Below, piece after piece: positions 15,746-25,864 of a DNA stretch of 32,000 nt. The stretch's first letter is position 1; every line of letters starts with the position of its first letter. Source of the DNA: Candidatus Jordarchaeales archaeon (GTDB lineage: Archaea > Asgardarchaeota > Jordiarchaeia > Jordiarchaeales > Freyrarchaeaceae); assembly GCA_038858525.1 (NCBI GenBank), contig JAWCFL010000001.1, positions 1 to 32,000 on the forward strand, written 5' to 3'. The notes below the pieces were generated by a model. The model was not told where the DNA came from, did no database searches, and saw nothing but the letters and a program-made list of their open reading frames with translations. The translations under genes and the position numbers were made by a program.

Positions 15746-15921
15746 AAAACCACCCTCAATGAATTTATTTCTTGTTCATAAAATTAATTTTTTGTAAAAA
15801 AATTCTCCCAGTAACCAAGCAATAACAGATTTACCAGTTATTATTCTTGGTAATATATTATTGGAAAAATTTATATATTATGAGATATAGATTCCTTGAA
15901 CAAATAAAAGAGGTGTCGATC

Positions 15922-17460
15922 GTGAAGATAAGAACGCCGCATGAAGAGCTGGAGAAGGTCGACGATGCGCCGATAAGGAGCTACGAGGAGATCAACGAGA
16001 AAATAAAGCGGGGAGACGTTGTCGTCGTCACAGCTGAAGAAATGATAAAGATAGTTGAAGAGGAAGGAGTAGCTAAGGCAGCTAAGGATATAGACGTAGT
16101 TACAACAGGGACGTTTGGTGCCATGTGCTCAAGCGGCGCCTTCCTAAACTTTGGACACGCAGATCCACCAATAAAAATGGAGAGAGTGTGGCTCAATGAA
16201 GTCGAAGCATATCATGGAGGAGCAGCTGTAGATTGCTACATAGGCGTCACTAAAATGAGCCAAACCAAACCATTCAAGTACGGAGGCGGACATGTAATTG
16301 AGGACTTAGTGGCAGGGAAAGAAATTGAAGTTAGAGCCATAGCTTACGGCACGGATTGCTACCCCAGAACACGCGTAGAAACCACGATAACTATAGACGA
16401 TCTTAACCAAGCTATTCTTTGCAACCCCAGAAACGCGTACCAAAGATATAACGCCGCAACCAACGGGCGTGACGAGGTTATATATACGTACATGGGTAAG
16501 CTTCTCCCTCATTATGGTAACGTCACGTTCTCAGGGTCAGGATGCCTTAACCCACTATGCAACGACCCAGATTACGAAACAATAGGGGTTGGAACGCGTA
16601 TATTTCTGGGAGGCGGAATAGGATACGTTATAGGAGAAGGAACGCAGCACAACCCAAAAGAACAGTTTGGAACATTAATGGTTAAAGGTGACCTTAAAAA
16701 GATGAAACCAAGATATTTGAGAGGGGCCGCCTTCGCTAAGTATGGCACAACAATGTTTGTCGGAGTCGGAGTCCCAATACCGATTCTGAATCAACGACTA
16801 GCTTTGAAGACAGCGGTAAGTGACGAGGAAATAACAACTAAGATTCTCGATTACGGTGTTCCGAGGCTTCAGAGGCCTGTCCTAAGAGAGGTAACTTATA
16901 GTGAGCTGAAATCTGGAAGAATAGAACTAAATGGTGAAACCGTTAAAGTGTCTCCGCTTTCTAGCATAAGCATGGCGAGAGAAATTGCTGAAACACTTAA
17001 AAAGTGGATAGAGAACGGGGAGTTCTTCCTCTCAGCCCCCGTAGAGAGACTGCCTCAAGACGTGGTCTTCAAGCCAATGAAAATGACGAAAGAGGTAAAG
17101 TATGTTAAAGCACTTATGAAGACGGCGGTCACATGCAAAAGAAATGACACGATAGAATCAGTAGCTAAGACAATAATCTCCAAGAACGTTAACCACGTGG
17201 TAGTTGTGGACGAGGATGGCAAGTTAGCGGGAATAGTCACATCGTTCGACATAACTAGAGCAGTAGCGGAGAACAAGAAGAACTTGGCAGAGATAATAAC
17301 TAAGAGAGTTATCTTTGCGGAGCCAGATGAGCCTGTTGATGCTGCAGCGAGGAGAATGAAGGAGCACGACATCTCAGCACTTCCAGTTATAGATTCACAG
17401 AGAAAAGTAATCGGTATAATTACTAGTGAGGACTTATCCGGGCTCATTACTGGAGGATGA
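15922..17460 (+). CDS. L-aspartate semialdehyde sulfurtransferase (DUF39 + tandem CBS; MA1821-like homocysteine biosynthesis protein)
   Basis: 'DVVTTGTFGAMCSSGAFLNFGHADPPIK' and 'NPRNAYQRYNAA' plus two C-terminal CBS domains. GTG 15922 follows an AGAGGTG RBS. Confidence 0.92.
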   Translation: MKIRTPHEELEKVDDAPIRSYEEINEKIKRGDVVVVTAEEMIKIVEEEGVAKAAKDIDVVTTGTFGAMCSSGAFLNFGHADPPIKMERVWLNEVEAYHGGAAVDCYIGVTKMSQTKPFKYGGGHVIEDLVAGKEIEVRAIAYGTDCYPRTRVETTITIDDLNQAILCNPRNAYQRYNAATNGRDEVIYTYMGKLLPHYGNVTFSGSGCLNPLCNDPDYETIGVGTRIFLGGGIGYVIGEGTQHNPKEQFGTLMVKGDLKKMKPRYLRGAAFAKYGTTMFVGVGVPIPILNQRLALKTAVSDEEITTKILDYGVPRLQRPVLREVTYSELKSGRIELNGETVKVSPLSSISMAREIAETLKKWIENGEFFLSAPVERLPQDVVFKPMKMTKEVKYVKALMKTAVTCKRNDTIESVAKTIISKNVNHVVVVDEDGKLAGIVTSFDITRAVAENKKNLAEIITKRVIFAEPDEPVDAAARRMKEHDISALPVIDSQRKVIGIITSEDLSGLITGG

Positions 17461-17464
17461 AAAC

Positions 17465-17851
17465 ATGAGGATGCTGGTTAGGTTTAACACAGATAAAGTT
17501 AAGGAAGCTGTTACGGCGAACGTCATTTTAGAGACAGGAGCAACCATAAACATTTTGAGTGCCTTGCTCAACGAAAAAGGAGGAGAAATGCTTCTAGAAG
17601 TACCAGATGCAAAGGCAGAAGAGGTCAGGGAATCTTTTAAGCGAAGAGGCGTAGAAATAGAGGATAGGAAATATGTGGAAATACTTAGAGAAAGATGCGT
17701 AAACTGCGGTTTATGCTATTCTCTCTGCCCTGTTAATGCCATACAGTTAGACACAAAAAACTACGAGATAAATCTGACAAAGGAACTATGTATTGGATGC
17801 TTTAAATGCCTTGATGCATGTCCAGTTGAAGCAATAGTAAAGATCAAATAA
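17465..17851 (+). CDS. NIL domain + 2x[4Fe-4S] ferredoxin (MA1822-like iron-sulfur subunit)
   Basis: NIL-type 'INILSA' N-terminal domain; CVNCGLCYSLCP and CIGCFKCLDACP; 4 bp downstream of its partner gene. Confidence 0.92.
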   Translation: MRMLVRFNTDKVKEAVTANVILETGATINILSALLNEKGGEMLLEVPDAKAEEVRESFKRRGVEIEDRKYVEILRERCVNCGLCYSLCPVNAIQLDTKNYEINLTKELCIGCFKCLDACPVEAIVKIK

Positions 17852-19392: not shown

Positions 19393-20262
19393 ATGAAGGG
19401 CAAGTATGTAAAGTACTCGGATAAGGTTTTAGAATTATTTTACGGCAATAGAGACGCATCCATGTTTCTTCCACTATTGAAGTTGTTTGCGGAGCACATG
19501 GAAAGCGTCTGCGAGGCTTGTATGGAAAATAAGATGGTTTGCACACTAAGACCCATGTGTCCTGATAGGAGATGGCTTAGTTTTCTCATAAAGATAGGGG
19601 CGCAAAAACGTGACTTACCGAGTTTCTGCTATAAAACGAGGATTAGCGAGATTAAAGCGATCATAGAAAAATCTAGTCATATACATTTTAGTGATGCCAT
19701 TCTTCAGACGGATGTCTTCCTTAATATTCTTTCAGGTGGAAGATCACGTCTTATAGAGCCACTTAAAAACGGTGACCTTGAAGGTTTTACTGAGGGGCTT
19801 ATAGCAGAGTTCAGGCGGCATATAGATGATGTTTCGTTTTTTGTTGGTGAAAATTACATATTTGTTTTGGTGGAGGATAACATATTTCTTATCTATTTGG
19901 ATGATGGGTTCGTTCTGATAAATCCCGAGGAGAAAACGTTTGATTCCATCAGTGAGTTTAATGATCTAATACTGGCGGTTAAAAATCATTACGAAATACC
20001 CATCTGGGTGGAGGAGGATTTTAAGGGGTTTCCTCGTATATTAGTGAGGGTTCCTTATAAGCCAGATGTGGAACAAGCTTTAGGCAAGTTTGTTGAAAAG
20101 GTGGCGGACAGCACGGAGCACGCAAGCTTCTTTCGTAACGATGAAAGCTTCATATTAGAAGTTGAGTTTGGCGCTATTAATTCTTCTCTTACGTTCAAAA
20201 AAGTGCTTTCCGTGCTCCGACGTATAAGGTCTCTTTGTCAAGAAGTAACTAGAGAAAGCTAG
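19393..20262 (+). CDS. Hypothetical protein with N-terminal Cys cluster (C-x2-C-x6-C-x5-C ... LPSFC)
   Basis: Five Cys in the first ~85 residues; ends 14 bp before the giant TrmB-like gene. Confidence 0.7.
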   Translation: MKGKYVKYSDKVLELFYGNRDASMFLPLLKLFAEHMESVCEACMENKMVCTLRPMCPDRRWLSFLIKIGAQKRDLPSFCYKTRISEIKAIIEKSSHIHFSDAILQTDVFLNILSGGRSRLIEPLKNGDLEGFTEGLIAEFRRHIDDVSFFVGENYIFVLVEDNIFLIYLDDGFVLINPEEKTFDSISEFNDLILAVKNHYEIPIWVEEDFKGFPRILVRVPYKPDVEQALGKFVEKVADSTEHASFFRNDESFILEVEFGAINSSLTFKKVLSVLRRIRSLCQEVTRES

Positions 20263-20276
20263 GTGAGGTATCAGTT

Positions 20277-23200
20277 ATGGCTAAAGACTTTGTGTCTTTG
20301 ATTGCCAGTAAATTTGGTCTCAGTGAGGATGAAGCAAAAGTATATAGCTTATTCATTCTGTATAGAATTCTTACTTTGGGGGAAATATGCTATCACACGG
20401 CTCTTCCTACTTCAAAGGTTGAGTCTATTATTCAGTCCCTTAAGGATAAAGGCCTGATATCCCATGTTCCAGGTGTAATTGAAAGATATGTAGCCGTAAC
20501 TCCCTTCAGGGCGCTATCTAAAGTGGCAGGCGATTTTATAAAGACGGCAGAGGAGGCAGATGCAAAATTAAGGAAGCATTTTGAAGTTAGCAAAGCTGAC
20601 ATAAAGAGAGCTGTTGACTCCTTTAAGTCCAACTTGAAGGATTCCGTGACGAAAGAGCTGCAGACTCTGAGGGGAGAGGTAAATAAGGCGAGCGAGCTTT
20701 TGGAAAAACTAGTTCAACGAGAGAAAGCGGACTTAAGTGACATGATAAAAAGAGCGGAATCTTATTCCTTAGGCCAACTGGAAAGTTACAAAAGATTTAG
20801 TGAGGAGTCTTTAACTTTAGTTAAAAGTGAGGTCGAAGAAGAATTAAAAAGCGTTTTAAACGAAGTGAGAAGAGTCACTGGGCAAAGTGCTGAAAGAGCA
20901 TCAAATACTCTTGCATCTATGCTAGACAATGCGAATGTTATGTTGGGAGAAATTGAGAAAAAAGTGATAAAGGATGTTTCGAAGATAGCGGAAACGACTG
21001 CTCTGACGGCGGGCAAGATCGCCGAGAAAGTAATGGAAGCCAAAAGTGAGTATGATTCTAAAGTAAGGGAGACTGTCGAAGTTGCTAAGGGGATTACTTC
21101 TAAAACGATAGATCTGTTGAGAAAAGAGCTGGATGAACGAGCTGGTTTAATAGAGAGAATAACGTCTGAAACAATACGAAAAAGCATAGAGAGAAGAAAG
21201 GAGCAGGATAATAAGTTAGAGAAAATATTGAGCACGTCTCTGAGAGGTTCAGCTTCAGAGATCGCTAAAAGTATTTCTTCTTTCTACACTTCGGCTTTAA
21301 GGCCTCTCTGGTCCTTAAGTAGAGAGCATGAAAAATGGATTCAAAATATTTCAGAGCGCACTAGTAAGCTTGTAGATGCAAGCATTTCGCGTCTTTCTTT
21401 CATGATTGAGGAAACGAAGGCAAAAATTGCTGAACGCATTAAATCACAGTTTGAAATTCAAGAAGAAGTATTGAGAGGATTTGGCTCAAAAGTAAGAGAG
21501 CACGTGACGTCTAGTCTTAGGGAGTTTGATGCGGCTTCTTCTTCGACTAGAGAGCGGTTCTCGTCAGTCATAATGGAGAACACAAAAGCCACTAACGAAA
21601 CCTTCGAGAAAACGAGGAAAGCAGTTGAGTCACTCGTATCAGAGAACGTGGAGATTATAAGAAATATGCTGAAAAAGGTTGAAGAGGAAGTTCAGGCATC
21701 ACTGGTCACAGAGAGAGAGGCCGAGGAAAAGGAGTTTTCTAAGTTTAAAGACGCGTTTTCGTCTATGTTGGAAGTTTCTAAGCGTGAGTTGACCGAGGCA
21801 ACAGGGTTAATGTCTGAAAACGCACTTAAGGAAATTTATACACGGACAACGGAATTTATAAATGAATTGAAAAAGCTGAGGGAGAAAGTTTCCGAGGCCA
21901 TCGAGAAGGAATTGAAGATGGTCAGGTGGGAGGCTGAGGAGGCACGAGGAAGCATAGAGAGATTTTTGGTTCAACGTATCACCGGTATGGAGGAGTATGC
22001 AGAACGCGTAAAGCAGCAGTTGGAGAGTATGGTCAAAGAGAGGCTGGAGGAGCTGAGTATCAGTGCTGAAGCTGTCCAAGTAGGATTTGCTGAATCAATG
22101 GACAAGATATTAGACAGAGTTAGGGAGATAGTAGAGGACGCGAAGAATGGTTTTTCGGTTTTACTTTCCACGCAGCTATCTTCATTTAAGGAAAATTTAG
22201 ATAAGCTTGGCATGTCATTTGCCGATGAGCTAAGCCGGCAGGTGGATGCAACTAAAACGGAGGCAAACGAAATTCTTTCAAACTTTTCAGAGGAGCTAGA
22301 GCACAGAGTTTCAGAAGTTGAGACTTTAGCGAAGCAGATTATGGAGAACGCGGAGGCTATGTTTAAAAGACAAGAAAAAATTAGCAGGCAACTTAGAGAC
22401 GTAGTTTCAACTTTCCTTGTCCAAGAAACAAAGCGATATATAGATTCTTTTTCTAATATTTTAATTTCTTTAAACGAACGCTCGGTCTCCCTCATAGAGT
22501 CGAAGATAAAGTCGTTGGAGAAGCTCAGAAACAATCTCGAAAAAGAACTTCACTCCCTTATAGTTAGTGAGGGGGCGGCGATAGAGGAAAAAAACGCTAG
22601 TTTAAGAGAGACGGTAAACTCATATGTTTCGGAGAGATACAAGGAATACGTTGAGTCATTAGAGGGCGTTGCTAAAGAGGTTGAAGAGCTACTTCGCGAA
22701 CATATTGAATATTATAAAGAGCACCTAGAGGGGCTTATAAGAGGCTTATCAGACGCTCTTGAAGAAACTTTAGGAAGAATATCTCAGGCCTCTAACGCAG
22801 TTATAAGTGATGCAGCTACTCAATTGGATACAGAAAAGGAAGCAATTGCGGGGGAAGCAAAGATTTTAATCGAAGCTGCGAGTAAAATGCTTGATTTTTA
22901 CGTTAAGAAGCTGAGGAGCAGCATTGCGGCCTCTTTAAATGATCTACTGAAGGAAGTATCAAGAAGAATAGAGAGCTTAAGGGAGGAGGGGGAAAGAGTC
23001 GAATCTTTAGTGAGGGAGGTCGTCGAGGCGGACTTTAAAGAATTTGAAGAGGCGCTCAAGAACTTAGAAGGAGCTTTAGCTTTAAATGTTAATAATGAAA
23101 AGGAAAGAACACTTTCCAGTGTTATCCAGTTAGAGTTAAAGTTACAAGATTTGCTAAACAAGGTGGGAGAGGAACTTGGCGCTTACTCAAGAGGTATACA

Positions 23201-24200
23201 GGAAGAAAGCAAAGGAATTTTAGATAATTACTCGAGAGAAGTAACAGGTCTTCTGGATGCTTCTGGTAAAGAAATTAACAGTTACCTAGAAGAAAGTAGG
23301 AAAATTTTCGGAGTAAAAACAGATGAAGTTAAAGACATGATTAATGGATTAATGGAGGAGCTTTCAAAAGAATTAGATGAAATAATACATAGAACACGTG
23401 AAGGCATAGCTACATTAGTAAAGGGGTATCATGAAAAAATAGAACGAAATGTGGAGGAGACTAGAGCACACCTTATAAGTGAGCTTAAAACATGCATAGA
23501 AAAAGAAGAAAAAGACGTGACTAGCTTTAGTCAAAACGTAGTTGAAACGCTATTTCGTCTAATGGAAAGTTGTGGAAAAACATTGGAGGAATTAAACAAC
23601 AATGTGACATCATACTTAAGTGAGTTTTACGAGAAAGCCGCCGAACATTTAGATGGTACAATGAAGGGAATAAGTGAAAAAGTAAGAATTCTACTTGAAG
23701 AGTTAAGAGCCGTAGAGTCAATATCTAGCTCAGCATGGGAGGAACTGGCGAAAGCCCCCCTAAGCATTGAGAAAACGTGTTTCATAGCTACGAGAGAAGT
23801 AGTAAAAACGCGGATGAGGGATATGGCAAAGCGAACTAAAAATTCATTGATAATAGTGGCTCCCGAGCTAGGAGAACTTCCAATAGAGGAGTTATTAGGG
23901 ATAGAGCCGCCAGCGAAATTGTACGTGTTCACTGATTTCGATTTACCCTCAGAGCTCAGCATTTTGAAGAGCTTAATAAGTAAGAGGAATCTCCGTTTGT
24001 GGAAAAGAAAGGAAAAAGAATTTTTCATGTGTCTACGGGACGATGAGGAAATTCTGATTGCTCCAGTATCCAAAGAAACACCTATCTTAGCAATAGTGAG
24101 CGAAGAGCGAAGCTACATTGATTCTTACAAACGCACATTAATACCGTTTCTCAGGTCGACAGCTAAAGAAGTGAAATTGAAAGACATAGACTCTGTTTAG
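20277..24200 (+). CDS. Giant TrmB-like protein: N-terminal wHTH, ~1,090-aa hendecad helical rod, C-terminal TrmB effector/PLD-fold-like domain
   Basis: N-term 'FGLSEDEAKVY...LTLGEI...KVESIIQSLKDKGLI...RYVAVTP' is a TrmB HTH. C-term 'RMRDMAKRTKNSLIIVAP...CLRDDEEILIAP' resembles the TrmB effector subdomain. GGTGAGG RBS. Confidence 0.8.
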   Translation: MAKDFVSLIASKFGLSEDEAKVYSLFILYRILTLGEICYHTALPTSKVESIIQSLKDKGLISHVPGVIERYVAVTPFRALSKVAGDFIKTAEEADAKLRKHFEVSKADIKRAVDSFKSNLKDSVTKELQTLRGEVNKASELLEKLVQREKADLSDMIKRAESYSLGQLESYKRFSEESLTLVKSEVEEELKSVLNEVRRVTGQSAERASNTLASMLDNANVMLGEIEKKVIKDVSKIAETTALTAGKIAEKVMEAKSEYDSKVRETVEVAKGITSKTIDLLRKELDERAGLIERITSETIRKSIERRKEQDNKLEKILSTSLRGSASEIAKSISSFYTSALRPLWSLSREHEKWIQNISERTSKLVDASISRLSFMIEETKAKIAERIKSQFEIQEEVLRGFGSKVREHVTSSLREFDAASSSTRERFSSVIMENTKATNETFEKTRKAVESLVSENVEIIRNMLKKVEEEVQASLVTEREAEEKEFSKFKDAFSSMLEVSKRELTEATGLMSENALKEIYTRTTEFINELKKLREKVSEAIEKELKMVRWEAEEARGSIERFLVQRITGMEEYAERVKQQLESMVKERLEELSISAEAVQVGFAESMDKILDRVREIVEDAKNGFSVLLSTQLSSFKENLDKLGMSFADELSRQVDATKTEANEILSNFSEELEHRVSEVETLAKQIMENAEAMFKRQEKISRQLRDVVSTFLVQETKRYIDSFSNILISLNERSVSLIESKIKSLEKLRNNLEKELHSLIVSEGAAIEEKNASLRETVNSYVSERYKEYVESLEGVAKEVEELLREHIEYYKEHLEGLIRGLSDALEETLGRISQASNAVISDAATQLDTEKEAIAGEAKILIEAASKMLDFYVKKLRSSIAASLNDLLKEVSRRIESLREEGERVESLVREVVEADFKEFEEALKNLEGALALNVNNEKERTLSSVIQLELKLQDLLNKVGEELGAYSRGIQEESKGILDNYSREVTGLLDASGKEINSYLEESRKIFGVKTDEVKDMINGLMEELSKELDEIIHRTREGIATLVKGYHEKIERNVEETRAHLISELKTCIEKEEKDVTSFSQNVVETLFRLMESCGKTLEELNNNVTSYLSEFYEKAAEHLDGTMKGISEKVRILLEELRAVESISSSAWEELAKAPLSIEKTCFIATREVVKTRMRDMAKRTKNSLIIVAPELGELPIEELLGIEPPAKLYVFTDFDLPSELSILKSLISKRNLRLWKRKEKEFFMCLRDDEEILIAPVSKETPILAIVSEERSYIDSYKRTLIPFLRSTAKEVKLKDIDSV
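21603..22328 (+). repeat. Eleven consecutive degenerate 22-aa (2x11) amphipathic repeats within the rod (aa 443-684)
   Basis: Cutting into 22-mers from F443 places hydrophobic residues at positions 1, 4, 8, 12 and 16 in most units. The same register recurs further downstream. Confidence 0.7.
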
Positions 24201-24473: not shown

Positions 24474-24821
24474 ATGATAAGCTGGGAAAATGTAGGTGAT
24501 GATGAAGAATTAAAGGAGTTGAATGCTTTAAAGAAATTTGTGACAGGTGATTATGTCAAAATAGCTATCTTAGAGCAACTTGTCAAAGGAGGCTGGTGTA
24601 CCTTGAGCGAGCTGTGCAGAGCTGCAAGGGGGTACGACAGATATGTCGGACACGTGAGAGTATCTACAATATTACAATACATGGAGAGCATCGCTAAAGG
24701 CATTTTAGAAAAAGCAGAAAACGAGTTTTCTGTAAAGTGGAGAATTAGACCTGAGAAGAAAAAGGACATAGAAGGCTGGATTGGAGAAATAAAGTCGACA
24801 CCTTATCGTAAAAGTTTTTAA
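24474..24821 (+). CDS. Small winged-helix protein, hypothetical
   Basis: 'VKIAILEQLVKGGWCTLSELCRAA...VRVSTILQYM...ILEKAENEFSVKWRI' follows a wHTH helix-helix-helix-wing layout. Confidence 0.65.
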   Translation: MISWENVGDDEELKELNALKKFVTGDYVKIAILEQLVKGGWCTLSELCRAARGYDRYVGHVRVSTILQYMESIAKGILEKAENEFSVKWRIRPEKKKDIEGWIGEIKSTPYRKSF

Positions 24822-25771: not shown

Positions 25772-25864
25772 TGGTGGGCGGGCCAGGATTTGAACCTGGG
25801 TCCTCCACGGTGTCAACTTCGCCTCTTCTTTGTGTGGCGTCATAACCAGCTAGACTACCCGCCC
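25772..25864 (-). tRNA. tRNA-Val(GAC) with a 16-nt non-canonical intron at 30/31 (25818..25833); CCA encoded
   Basis: Removing ACAAAGAAGAGGCGAA gives a 77-nt cloverleaf: GGGCGGG/CCCGCCC acceptor, CCACG-TTGACAC-CGTGG anticodon arm, TTCAAAT T-loop. Confidence 0.92.

Follow-up and report, generated by a model that had tools for sequence, protein, structure and literature searches.

A TrmB-type protein with a very long helical rod in a Jordarchaeales genome

We analyzed a window of 32,000 nucleotides, corresponding to positions 1 to 32,000 of contig JAWCFL010000001.1 in the assembly GCA_038858525.1 of a Candidatus Jordarchaeales archaeon (Asgardarchaeota), and closely examined a gene at positions 20277 to 24200 of the forward strand. 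This gene (here called the rod gene) is a single open reading frame (ORF) that begins with ATG and spans 1,307 codons, and its 1,307-amino-acid product, P0001, resembles the chromatin protein TrmBL2 at both ends. The product consists of a TrmB-type winged helix-turn-helix, or wHTH (residues 1 to 78; 20277 to 20510), a rod of about 98 repeats of 11 residues (residues 79 to 1159; 20511 to 23753), and a C-terminal, TrmBL2-type domain with a phospholipase D (PLD)-like fold (residues 1160 to 1307; 23754 to 24197). Within the rod, a conserved patch in the N-terminal arm (residues 328 to 362; 21258 to 21362) and a block centered on the rod midpoint (residues 552 to 694; 21930 to 22358) stand out; all of these features lie on the forward strand. 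The ORF is the third-longest of its genome (2.09 Mb, 92.7% complete), and this DNA turns up again in hot-spring metagenomes of several studies. The public annotation of a 1,302-amino-acid ortholog reads just "helix-turn-helix domain-containing protein."

The N-terminal end was recognized by sequence. Residues 12 to 76 matched the TrmB wHTH family PF01978 in Pfam (E = 5.5e-11; 42.6 bits, with a cut-off of 25.6), and the best sequence match among solved structures was TrmBL2 (5bpd; E = 5.4e-7, residues 2 to 101), followed by TrmB (3qph; E = 9e-4). The wHTH residues G14, L15, E19, Y23, G30, T33, L55, G66, R70, Y71, and P76 are conserved in the family. Across its long members, the structural core and the wing pair Arg70-Tyr71 are kept, the latter in 79 and 86 of 103 proteins, respectively.

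For residues 1140 to 1307, no match was found in Pfam, and a profile of the C-terminal domains of ten relatives had no match among PDB sequences. An AlphaFold 2 (AF2) model of residues 1088 to 1307, built on 119 relatives with a predicted local distance difference test (pLDDT) score of 95, revealed one helix of about 71 to 72 residues (pLDDT 93 to 96) leading into an alpha/beta domain. Foldseek matched the model to TrmBL2 (5bpd; E = 3e-10) and to the sugar-binding domain of TrmB (2f5t; root mean square deviation of 3.0 Å over 141 columns); further matches were PLD-fold proteins (Nuc, NucT, and Zucchini), a structural likeness only. In addition, the C termini of 38 of the 119 relatives reached the family PF11495 (Regulator_TrmB), with a best E value of 2.2e-7. 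The domain carries a conserved C.RD..EE.L.AP motif, and no histidine occurs in residues 1150 to 1307, so that the catalytic HxK(x)4D (HKD) motif of the PLD superfamily is absent. The protein ends after this single alpha/beta domain of 148 residues and has no counterpart of the beta-barrel subdomain of TrmB, which holds the sugar-binding residues G320 and E326.

Both ends of the rod are homologous to the ends of the TrmBL2 helix. Since a wHTH is combined with an inactive PLD-like end domain and no sugar-binding barrel, the architecture is that of TrmBL2. The protein belongs to the TrmB family by its N-terminal winged helix, as judged from sequence, and by its C-terminal PLD-like subdomain, as judged from fold and relatives. 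It departs from the family in the helix that connects them, which has 1,081 residues and is about 30 times longer than the usual dimer helix of about 30 residues.

The rod is an unbroken hendecad repeat

The helix covers residues 79 to 1159, i.e., 1,081 residues or 98.3 hendecads, and proline occurs only once (Pro343) between residues 77 and 1160. Fourier analysis of its hydrophobicity yielded a lone dominant peak at 3.67 residues (11/3) with a power of 1131, whereas 100 shuffled sequences averaged 75 and reached at most 122. Between residues ~80 and ~1145, the 11/3 phase varied by no more than about ±30 degrees, and no register break occurred over about 98 repeats. Large hydrophobic residues were found at hendecad positions a (77%), h (73%), d (52%), k (39%), and e (36%), and the choice between d and e alternates, giving rise to an extra 22-residue component. 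Period, a/d/e/h core, and maintained register are those of a hendecad coiled coil, and a core of three residues per hendecad (a, d or e, and h) is what a two-stranded one would show. Among the 1,829 ORFs of at least 150 amino acids in the genome, the rod ORF had the highest 11/3 power (1260, versus 302 for the next, its own paralog), whereas the heptad, SMC-like ORFs of the same genome peaked at 3.5 residues.

No membrane-like or hydrophobic N-terminal segment was detected (maximum KD19 of 1.32), and the rod protein is cytoplasmic. Six stretches of the rod together exceeded the Pfam cut-off for the apolipoprotein family PF01442 (103.3 bits, with a cut-off of 90), a score attributable to the shared 11/22 periodicity and composition. 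Proline-punctuated 22-mers and a secretion signal, as expected for apolipoproteins, are absent, and the protein starts with a winged helix. In NCBIfam, the ZorA tail was matched weakly (29.9 bits, with a cut-off of 250). Pfam and NCBIfam searches gave no SMC/Rad50 ATPase head, hinge, or zinc hook, and the center of the rod contains no conserved cysteine, glycine, or proline.

The initial annotation of this DNA had described a hendecad rod that stretches a TrmB-like protein, and the PF01978 match, the C-terminal fold, and the 3.67-residue period bear this out. It had taken both ends to be recognizable and had named a failure of the termini to match TrmB profiles as grounds for dropping the idea; the N-terminal end matches PF01978 directly, and the C-terminal end is linked to PF11495 through its fold and transitive homology. 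The 11/22-residue periodicity was recovered in the Fourier peak and the d/e alternation. A suspected connection to chromatin proteins of the TrmB family agrees with TrmBL2 being the closest relative, both in Foldseek and in the N-terminal sequence match. The claim of an almost proline-free helix of about 1,090 residues held for the proline content, while the length had to be corrected to 1,081.

Rod length is conserved in a family of Asgard archaea

A profile of the end domain retrieved 400 cluster representatives among 1.84 billion proteins, and the domain was C-terminal in nearly all of the 150 matches listed. The N-terminal winged helix was present in 84 of 151 family proteins examined, which measured 323 to 1,907 residues; their rods span about 50 to 1,800 residues, nearly all with a peak at 3.6 to 3.7. 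End-domain matches occurred in 35 of 41 genomes sampled across the phylum, usually with two to four per genome. The nearest ESM-Atlas clusters were from Promethearchaeota, and short TrmBL2-like proteins of other archaea scored lower; among the sequences sampled, the long form was seen only in Asgard archaea. In the part of the literature that was covered, TrmB-type proteins with long hendecad rods were not described. The family is real and apparently undescribed; its mechanism is what we infer below.

Five orthologs from two genera (1,307 to 1,310 amino acids) aligned over 1,307 positions without an internal gap, at an ungapped rod identity to P0001 of 37 to 66%. Rod length was further determined from anchor to anchor, with fixed points in either end-domain profile as anchors. 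This distance was 1041 to 1044 in 19 proteins, including subfamilies of other Asgard families whose rods are otherwise at background identity (0.05 to 0.09 in ungapped comparison). Rod length across Asgard orthologs was one of the checks suggested in the initial annotation. Further recurrent length classes were about 490, 674, 714, 828, 1504, and 1649. In one distant group, subfamily B (L024, L025, L026, P0133, and P0134), the phase shifts by about +95 degrees, corresponding to one residue, at rod position ~250 to 290, and the new register is then kept; despite this shift, the total anchor-to-anchor length is still 1043. Zero indels, the same length in distant subfamilies, a register held over 98 repeats, and retention throughout the phylum argue for selection on the rod itself.

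Several length classes are linked by internal tandem duplications, which added 232 residues in P0139 (1,537 amino acids), 417 in P0040 (1,732), about 679 in P0022 and P0026 (~1,790), and about 289 in P0047, P0062, and P0070 (~1,100). Subtraction of the duplicated unit led to other canonical lengths, namely 1043, 1041, 825, and 546.

The most conserved rod stretch among order-level orthologs is the patch at residues 328 to 362 (AK..S.FY....K.L..L...HEK), into which 6 of the 11 invariant rod columns fall. Located off center, some 250 residues away from the winged helix, the patch is a candidate site for binding a partner.

The genome encodes further proteins of this kind. A 520-amino-acid paralog (G000:C4:103521-105083; L028:4522-6084) ranks second in 11/3 power (302); its PF11495 end domain is weak, and no winged helix was detected, making it a rod protein that lacks the DNA-binding head. 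An ORF of 627 amino acids (G000:C16:41162-43044), which was missed by the end-domain query, gave the best PF01978 match of the genome (E = 4.7e-11) and the third-highest 11/3 power (120) and may be a further divergent family member.

The exact center of the rod is distinguished

The center of the helix is residue 619, and in this orthogroup the hendecad pattern runs continuously through residues 607 to 640. When two distant subfamilies were compared, residues 552 to 694, a block of 143 residues centered on residue 623, were the sole stretch of colinear similarity. Several windows of this block exceeded the 99th percentile of in-register control offsets, and the rest of the rod was at the control mean. 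This comparison allows for the one-residue register shift of subfamily B near rod position 270; before that correction, an ungapped comparison at offset 0 had given no conservation at the center.

A hidden Markov model (HMM) of the central block found the held-out 1041-1044 members L011, P0138, P0108, P0154, and P0034 at -1 to -2 from the expected center. It also placed P0129, with a rod of 1149 (106 longer), at 0, although with a low score that could be due to chance. In the class with rods of 835 to 846, the top matches were two copies of the block, located at -146 and +143 from the center. The outer arms of this class measure ~272 and 275 residues, versus 521 in the 1043 class, i.e., both arms are shorter to an equal extent, by about 250. 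A 45-residue midpoint HMM assembled by eye (F..LL-S/T-S/T-Q) had no match at the center of other length classes and was discarded.

The duplications point to the same position. P0139 is a 1043-type rod with a recent tandem duplication of 232 residues, whose copies are ~85% identical and whose unit is centered ~1 to 9 residues from the rod center. The 417-residue duplication of P0040 also lies across the center, ~30 residues off. A duplication centered on the dyad preserves every antiparallel contact. Furthermore, in short-rod paralog classes the weakest repeat point was within ±15 residues of the center in 10 of 24 proteins, with 1.7 expected. A special status of the exact center suggests antiparallel pairing of the N-terminal and C-terminal rod halves, since a parallel in-register dimer gives the midpoint no status. 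A two-copy complex prediction for the short member P0087 (450 amino acids) scored 0.06, compared to a mark of 0.32, and gives no topology.

A five-cysteine protein is encoded directly upstream

The gene directly upstream, P0004 (19393 to 20262, forward strand), encodes 289 amino acids. Its stop codon is separated from the ATG of the rod gene by a spacer of 14 nucleotides in which a Shine-Dalgarno-like motif, GGTGAGG (20262 to 20268, forward strand), was read directly from the sequence. No family was found for P0004 in Pfam, NCBIfam, or an Atlas feature search. Alignment of 17 homologs revealed the invariant cysteines C40, C43, C50, C56, and C79 as well as P54, R59, N177, and P178. The cysteines form a CxxCx6Cx5C pattern plus one further cysteine in the N-terminal helical domain and probably constitute a metal or Fe-S site. 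The AF2 model was of good quality (pLDDT 88; predicted template modeling [TM] score of 0.84). A Foldseek search of the PDB gave no match at an E value of ≤0.001, and an Atlas shape search remained below a TM score of 0.5. The best hit of a wide VIA-align search (Z = 8.4) was limited to residues 181 to 286, a common alpha/beta sandwich as in pterin dehydratase and type III chaperones, from which no function was drawn.

P0004-like genes occur once per genome in 24 of the 41 genomes. Thirteen genomes, representing six Asgard families, have such a gene immediately upstream of a rod gene and in the same orientation, an arrangement not shared by five more distant cases. This adjacency is strong evidence for a functional link between the two genes. 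The partner can nevertheless be lost, because one complete genome (G006; locus L011) has a 1,306-amino-acid rod gene with a DUF4139-like gene directly upstream and no P0004 homolog anywhere, whereas four of its congeners keep one, located directly upstream of a rod gene in both loci that were fetched (G007 and G009).

Farther upstream lies P0005 (18170 to 19189, forward strand), a beta-rich, DUF4139/MuiA-like gene. Homologs are found upstream in L009, L010, and L011, and P0005 joins the rod/P0004 pair only within the order. In one sediment metatranscriptome, five short contigs matched the locus, four of them 95 to 99% and one 90 to 95% alike. They cover P0005, the P0005-P0004 spacer, the start of P0004, the P0004/rod junction (20016 to 20319), and part of the rod (22437 to 22692). 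This is a weak hint that the locus of a related strain is expressed, and the parts without coverage carry no meaning. A scan for promoters and terminators of the bacterial type gave counts at or below the shuffle expectation, with models that are not applicable to archaea.

Other features of the window were recorded in passing. A 115-amino-acid protein encoded directly downstream of the rod gene (24474 to 24821, forward strand) has no family match, and among the fetched loci a homolog was present only in the same-genus relative L009. Upstream, at 15847 to 17851 (forward strand), a gene for a homocysteine-biosynthesis enzyme (PF01837 plus two CBS domains, 537 amino acids) overlaps one for a 141-amino-acid NIL-domain 2x[4Fe-4S] ferredoxin; the pair is also located upstream in the two closest relatives. 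At 25772 to 25864 (reverse strand), ARAGORN called a 93-nucleotide "tRNA-???" with a four-base anticodon.

Topology and proposed mechanism

Taken as a whole, the data make it somewhat probable, in our view, that the rod protein is a cytoplasmic architectural protein of the TrmB/TrmBL2 family in which an antiparallel rod of fixed length serves as a DNA spacer or bridge. Antiparallel pairing of the rod halves in either of the two forms described here is by itself likely. Because of its strict length, unbroken register, and conserved center, the rod itself would be the functional part. The single connecting helix has grown from ~30 to 1,081 residues of an 11-residue repeat, and we propose that its N-terminal half would pair antiparallel with the C-terminal half to form a hendecad coiled coil of two strands. 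In TrmB, antiparallel pairing of the connecting helices (Phe81/Ile91' and Phe84/Leu88'), described as a domain swap (PMC4158304), holds the dimer together, and antiparallel pairing of the rod would therefore match the ancestral kind.

Within one chain, such pairing would give a fold-back arm of ~80 nm (~540 residues per arm), one end of which would carry a TrmBL2-like head while the central block would form the tip. Between two chains, it would give a domain-swapped dimer of ~160 nm that carries at each end a composite head, in which a wHTH and the end domain next to it belong to different chains. Domain swapping would relate the two forms, whose contacts would be identical, and they look the same at the level of sequence. 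Continuous helices are somewhat favored by the unbroken central repeat and the tolerance of center-spanning duplications, and the hairpin by the midpoint breaks of the short paralogs. The functional part of the proposal is its weakest step. By homology, the head should act like TrmBL2 and would bind DNA with little sequence specificity. The rod would then act as a spacer or bridge of fixed length, either holding DNA at a set distance from a binder of the central block or linking two DNA segments. The co-encoded cysteine-cluster protein, probably metal- or Fe-S-binding, would work together with the rod.

Several observations weigh against this reading. The topology is read from sequence symmetry, the sequences compared are related, and the counts are not independent. 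The duplication argument is partly arithmetic, as a symmetric pair results whenever a central element is duplicated. Mirror-image comparisons, made per hendecad for side-chain volume, conservation, and core hydrophobicity and also for smoothed charge, gave no signal at the center, with unquantified power. In this orthogroup there is no midpoint break, and glycine and proline are not conserved anywhere in the rod, which makes a hairpin less natural than in the short paralogs. The rod also has a net charge of -43. At the recognition helix, Tyr50/Asp51 of TrmB are replaced by Glu49/Ser50; position 49 in the long family (n = 103) is occupied by Glu (30), Lys (11), and Gln (11), with no Tyr among the six commonest residues, and exposed positions of this helix are frequently acidic. 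Judging from these residues, DNA binding appears doubtful in detail. Finally, the apparent link to P0004 is one of gene adjacency, which does not show contact.

The strongest alternative is a parallel, in-register homodimer, which would place both winged helices together, separate the PLD-like domains from them by 160 nm, and tether DNA to a distant structure. Most wHTH regulators bind DNA through a pair of winged helices, and the unbroken hendecad register, the missing conserved helix breaker, and the wide range of rod lengths fit a dimer that tolerates length changes anywhere. A parallel dimer may also carry a centrally placed partner site, a further point against the antiparallel rod. Yet a parallel dimer provides no reason for the sole block conserved between subfamilies to be central and to stay central or mirror-paired in other length classes, for duplications to span the center, or for short paralogs to break at their midpoint, and the dimer helix of TrmB pairs antiparallel (PMC4158304). 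We therefore regard it as unlikely, and the symmetry about the exact center likewise disfavors the single continuous 160-nm tether, with its DNA end far from the other end, of the initial annotation. The rods might instead assemble laterally or end to end into a cytoskeletal or nucleoid scaffold, similar to intermediate filaments or crescentin, with the heads decorating DNA. Long coiled coils of fixed length are the building blocks of such filaments, the stretches at 328 to 362 and 552 to 694 could be lateral contacts, and TrmBL2 itself forms stiff nucleoprotein filaments (PMC8707338 and PMC11840125); set against the negative rod charge, the single gene copy, and no sign of high abundance, this seems improbable.

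Two further readings would leave the rod with a different role or none. As an apolipoprotein-, perilipin-, or LEA-like 11/3 helix, it would cover a lipid or membrane surface or act as a stress protectant, with the TrmB ends as accessories. Apart from the PF01442 score and the 11/22-residue periodicity, position e speaks for this, being 24% basic versus 12% acidic, so that basic residues are slightly favored at one edge of the hydrophobic face. They are not concentrated at both edges, however, and the stripe is narrow and coiled-coil-like, with about three large residues per 11. One proline in 1,081 residues and the lack of a signal peptide or membrane segment do not fit either, and strict length and central symmetry would not be expected. 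We consider lipid binding, which the initial annotation had also put forward, very unlikely, as periodicity explains the Pfam match. Even less credence is given to an ordinary TrmB-type regulator whose helix is a neutral repeat expansion without a spacer function. Growth by large tandem duplications and the plain public annotation would suit such a protein, but orthologs without a single indel at rod identities down to 37%, an equal length in distant subfamilies, a register held over 98 repeats, and phylum-wide retention are hard to reconcile with neutrality.

Returning to the antiparallel spacer, its boldest version would be a set of undescribed, ATP-independent chromosome rulers or bridges of fixed length in Asgard archaea. 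The protein would be a closed hairpin of ~80 nm or a domain-swapped, two-headed DNA bridge of ~160 nm, with the central block as a hinge or register setter and the five-cysteine protein as a metal/redox switch factor or tip anchor, and discrete rod classes of about 490, 675, 830, 1043, 1500, and 1650 residues would set discrete spacings in the cell. This picture is a long shot.

Significance and comparison with known systems

Among known prokaryotes, Asgard archaea are most closely related to eukaryotes; the cells of these archaea have an unusually elaborate architecture, and the organization of their DNA and cytoplasm is largely unknown. Here, a small chromatin protein has been turned into rods of tens to hundreds of nanometers, throughout the phylum and often as several paralogs. 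New in this study are the residue-exact length across subfamilies, the central block with its mirror pairs and center-spanning duplications, and the phylum-wide link to a five-cysteine partner. Provided that the heads do bind DNA, the family would supply the first fixed-length DNA spacers or bridges without ATP dependence to be described in archaea, together with a dedicated cysteine-cluster partner. The family is also a natural series for how very long hendecad coils keep register and grow by duplications across their center. The proteins should be tractable, i.e., soluble and accessible to recombinant expression, and electron microscopy would read length and topology directly.

To our knowledge, length control of this degree is seen elsewhere in SMC arms and a small number of molecular rulers. 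In SMC, Rad50, and MukB, a long antiparallel coiled coil of conserved arm length joins the chain ends into a DNA-binding head and has a special tip. The likeness is a functional analogy only and not homology, as the rod protein has no ATPase head, hinge, or zinc hook and is built of hendecads instead of heptads. Hendecad coils have an 11-residue repeat with an a, d/e, and h core that gives straight or right-handed coils (PMC6131620 and PMC3293630). The same repeat occurs in the peripheral stalk (E/G) of rotary ATPases, the tetrabrachion stalk, and the ZorA tail; these rods, of ~10 to 70 nm, are parts of membrane machines or surface layers, and none has TrmB-type ends. Apolipoproteins A-I, A-IV, and E share the amphipathic 11/22 periodicity, from which the rod protein differs in lacking proline punctuation and a secretion signal, in its coiled-coil-like stripe, and in being cytoplasmic and archaeal.

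TrmB, the sugar-sensing regulator of Pyrococcus and Thermococcus (3qph and 2f5t), shares the winged helix and the first effector subdomain but has a second, sugar-binding beta-barrel subdomain that is missing from the rod protein. This barrel is also absent from TrmBL2 (PMC4158304). TrmBL2 is abundant, shows no sequence specificity in its DNA binding, assembles into stiff filaments, and stalls SMC (PMC8707338 and PMC11840125). TrmBL2 (PF0496/TK0471; 5bpd, 5bpi, 5bqt, and 5box), a nucleoid protein of Thermococcales, has the same wHTH, connecting helix, and barrel-less PLD-like end and is the best solved match for both ends of the rod protein. While TrmBL2 has 264 amino acids and a connecting helix of ~35 residues, the rod protein reaches 1,307 amino acids with a strict hendecad rod of 1,081 residues, fixed length, and a conserved center. 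It differs further in the replaced recognition-helix residues Tyr50/Asp51 and in its conserved partner gene with a cysteine cluster.

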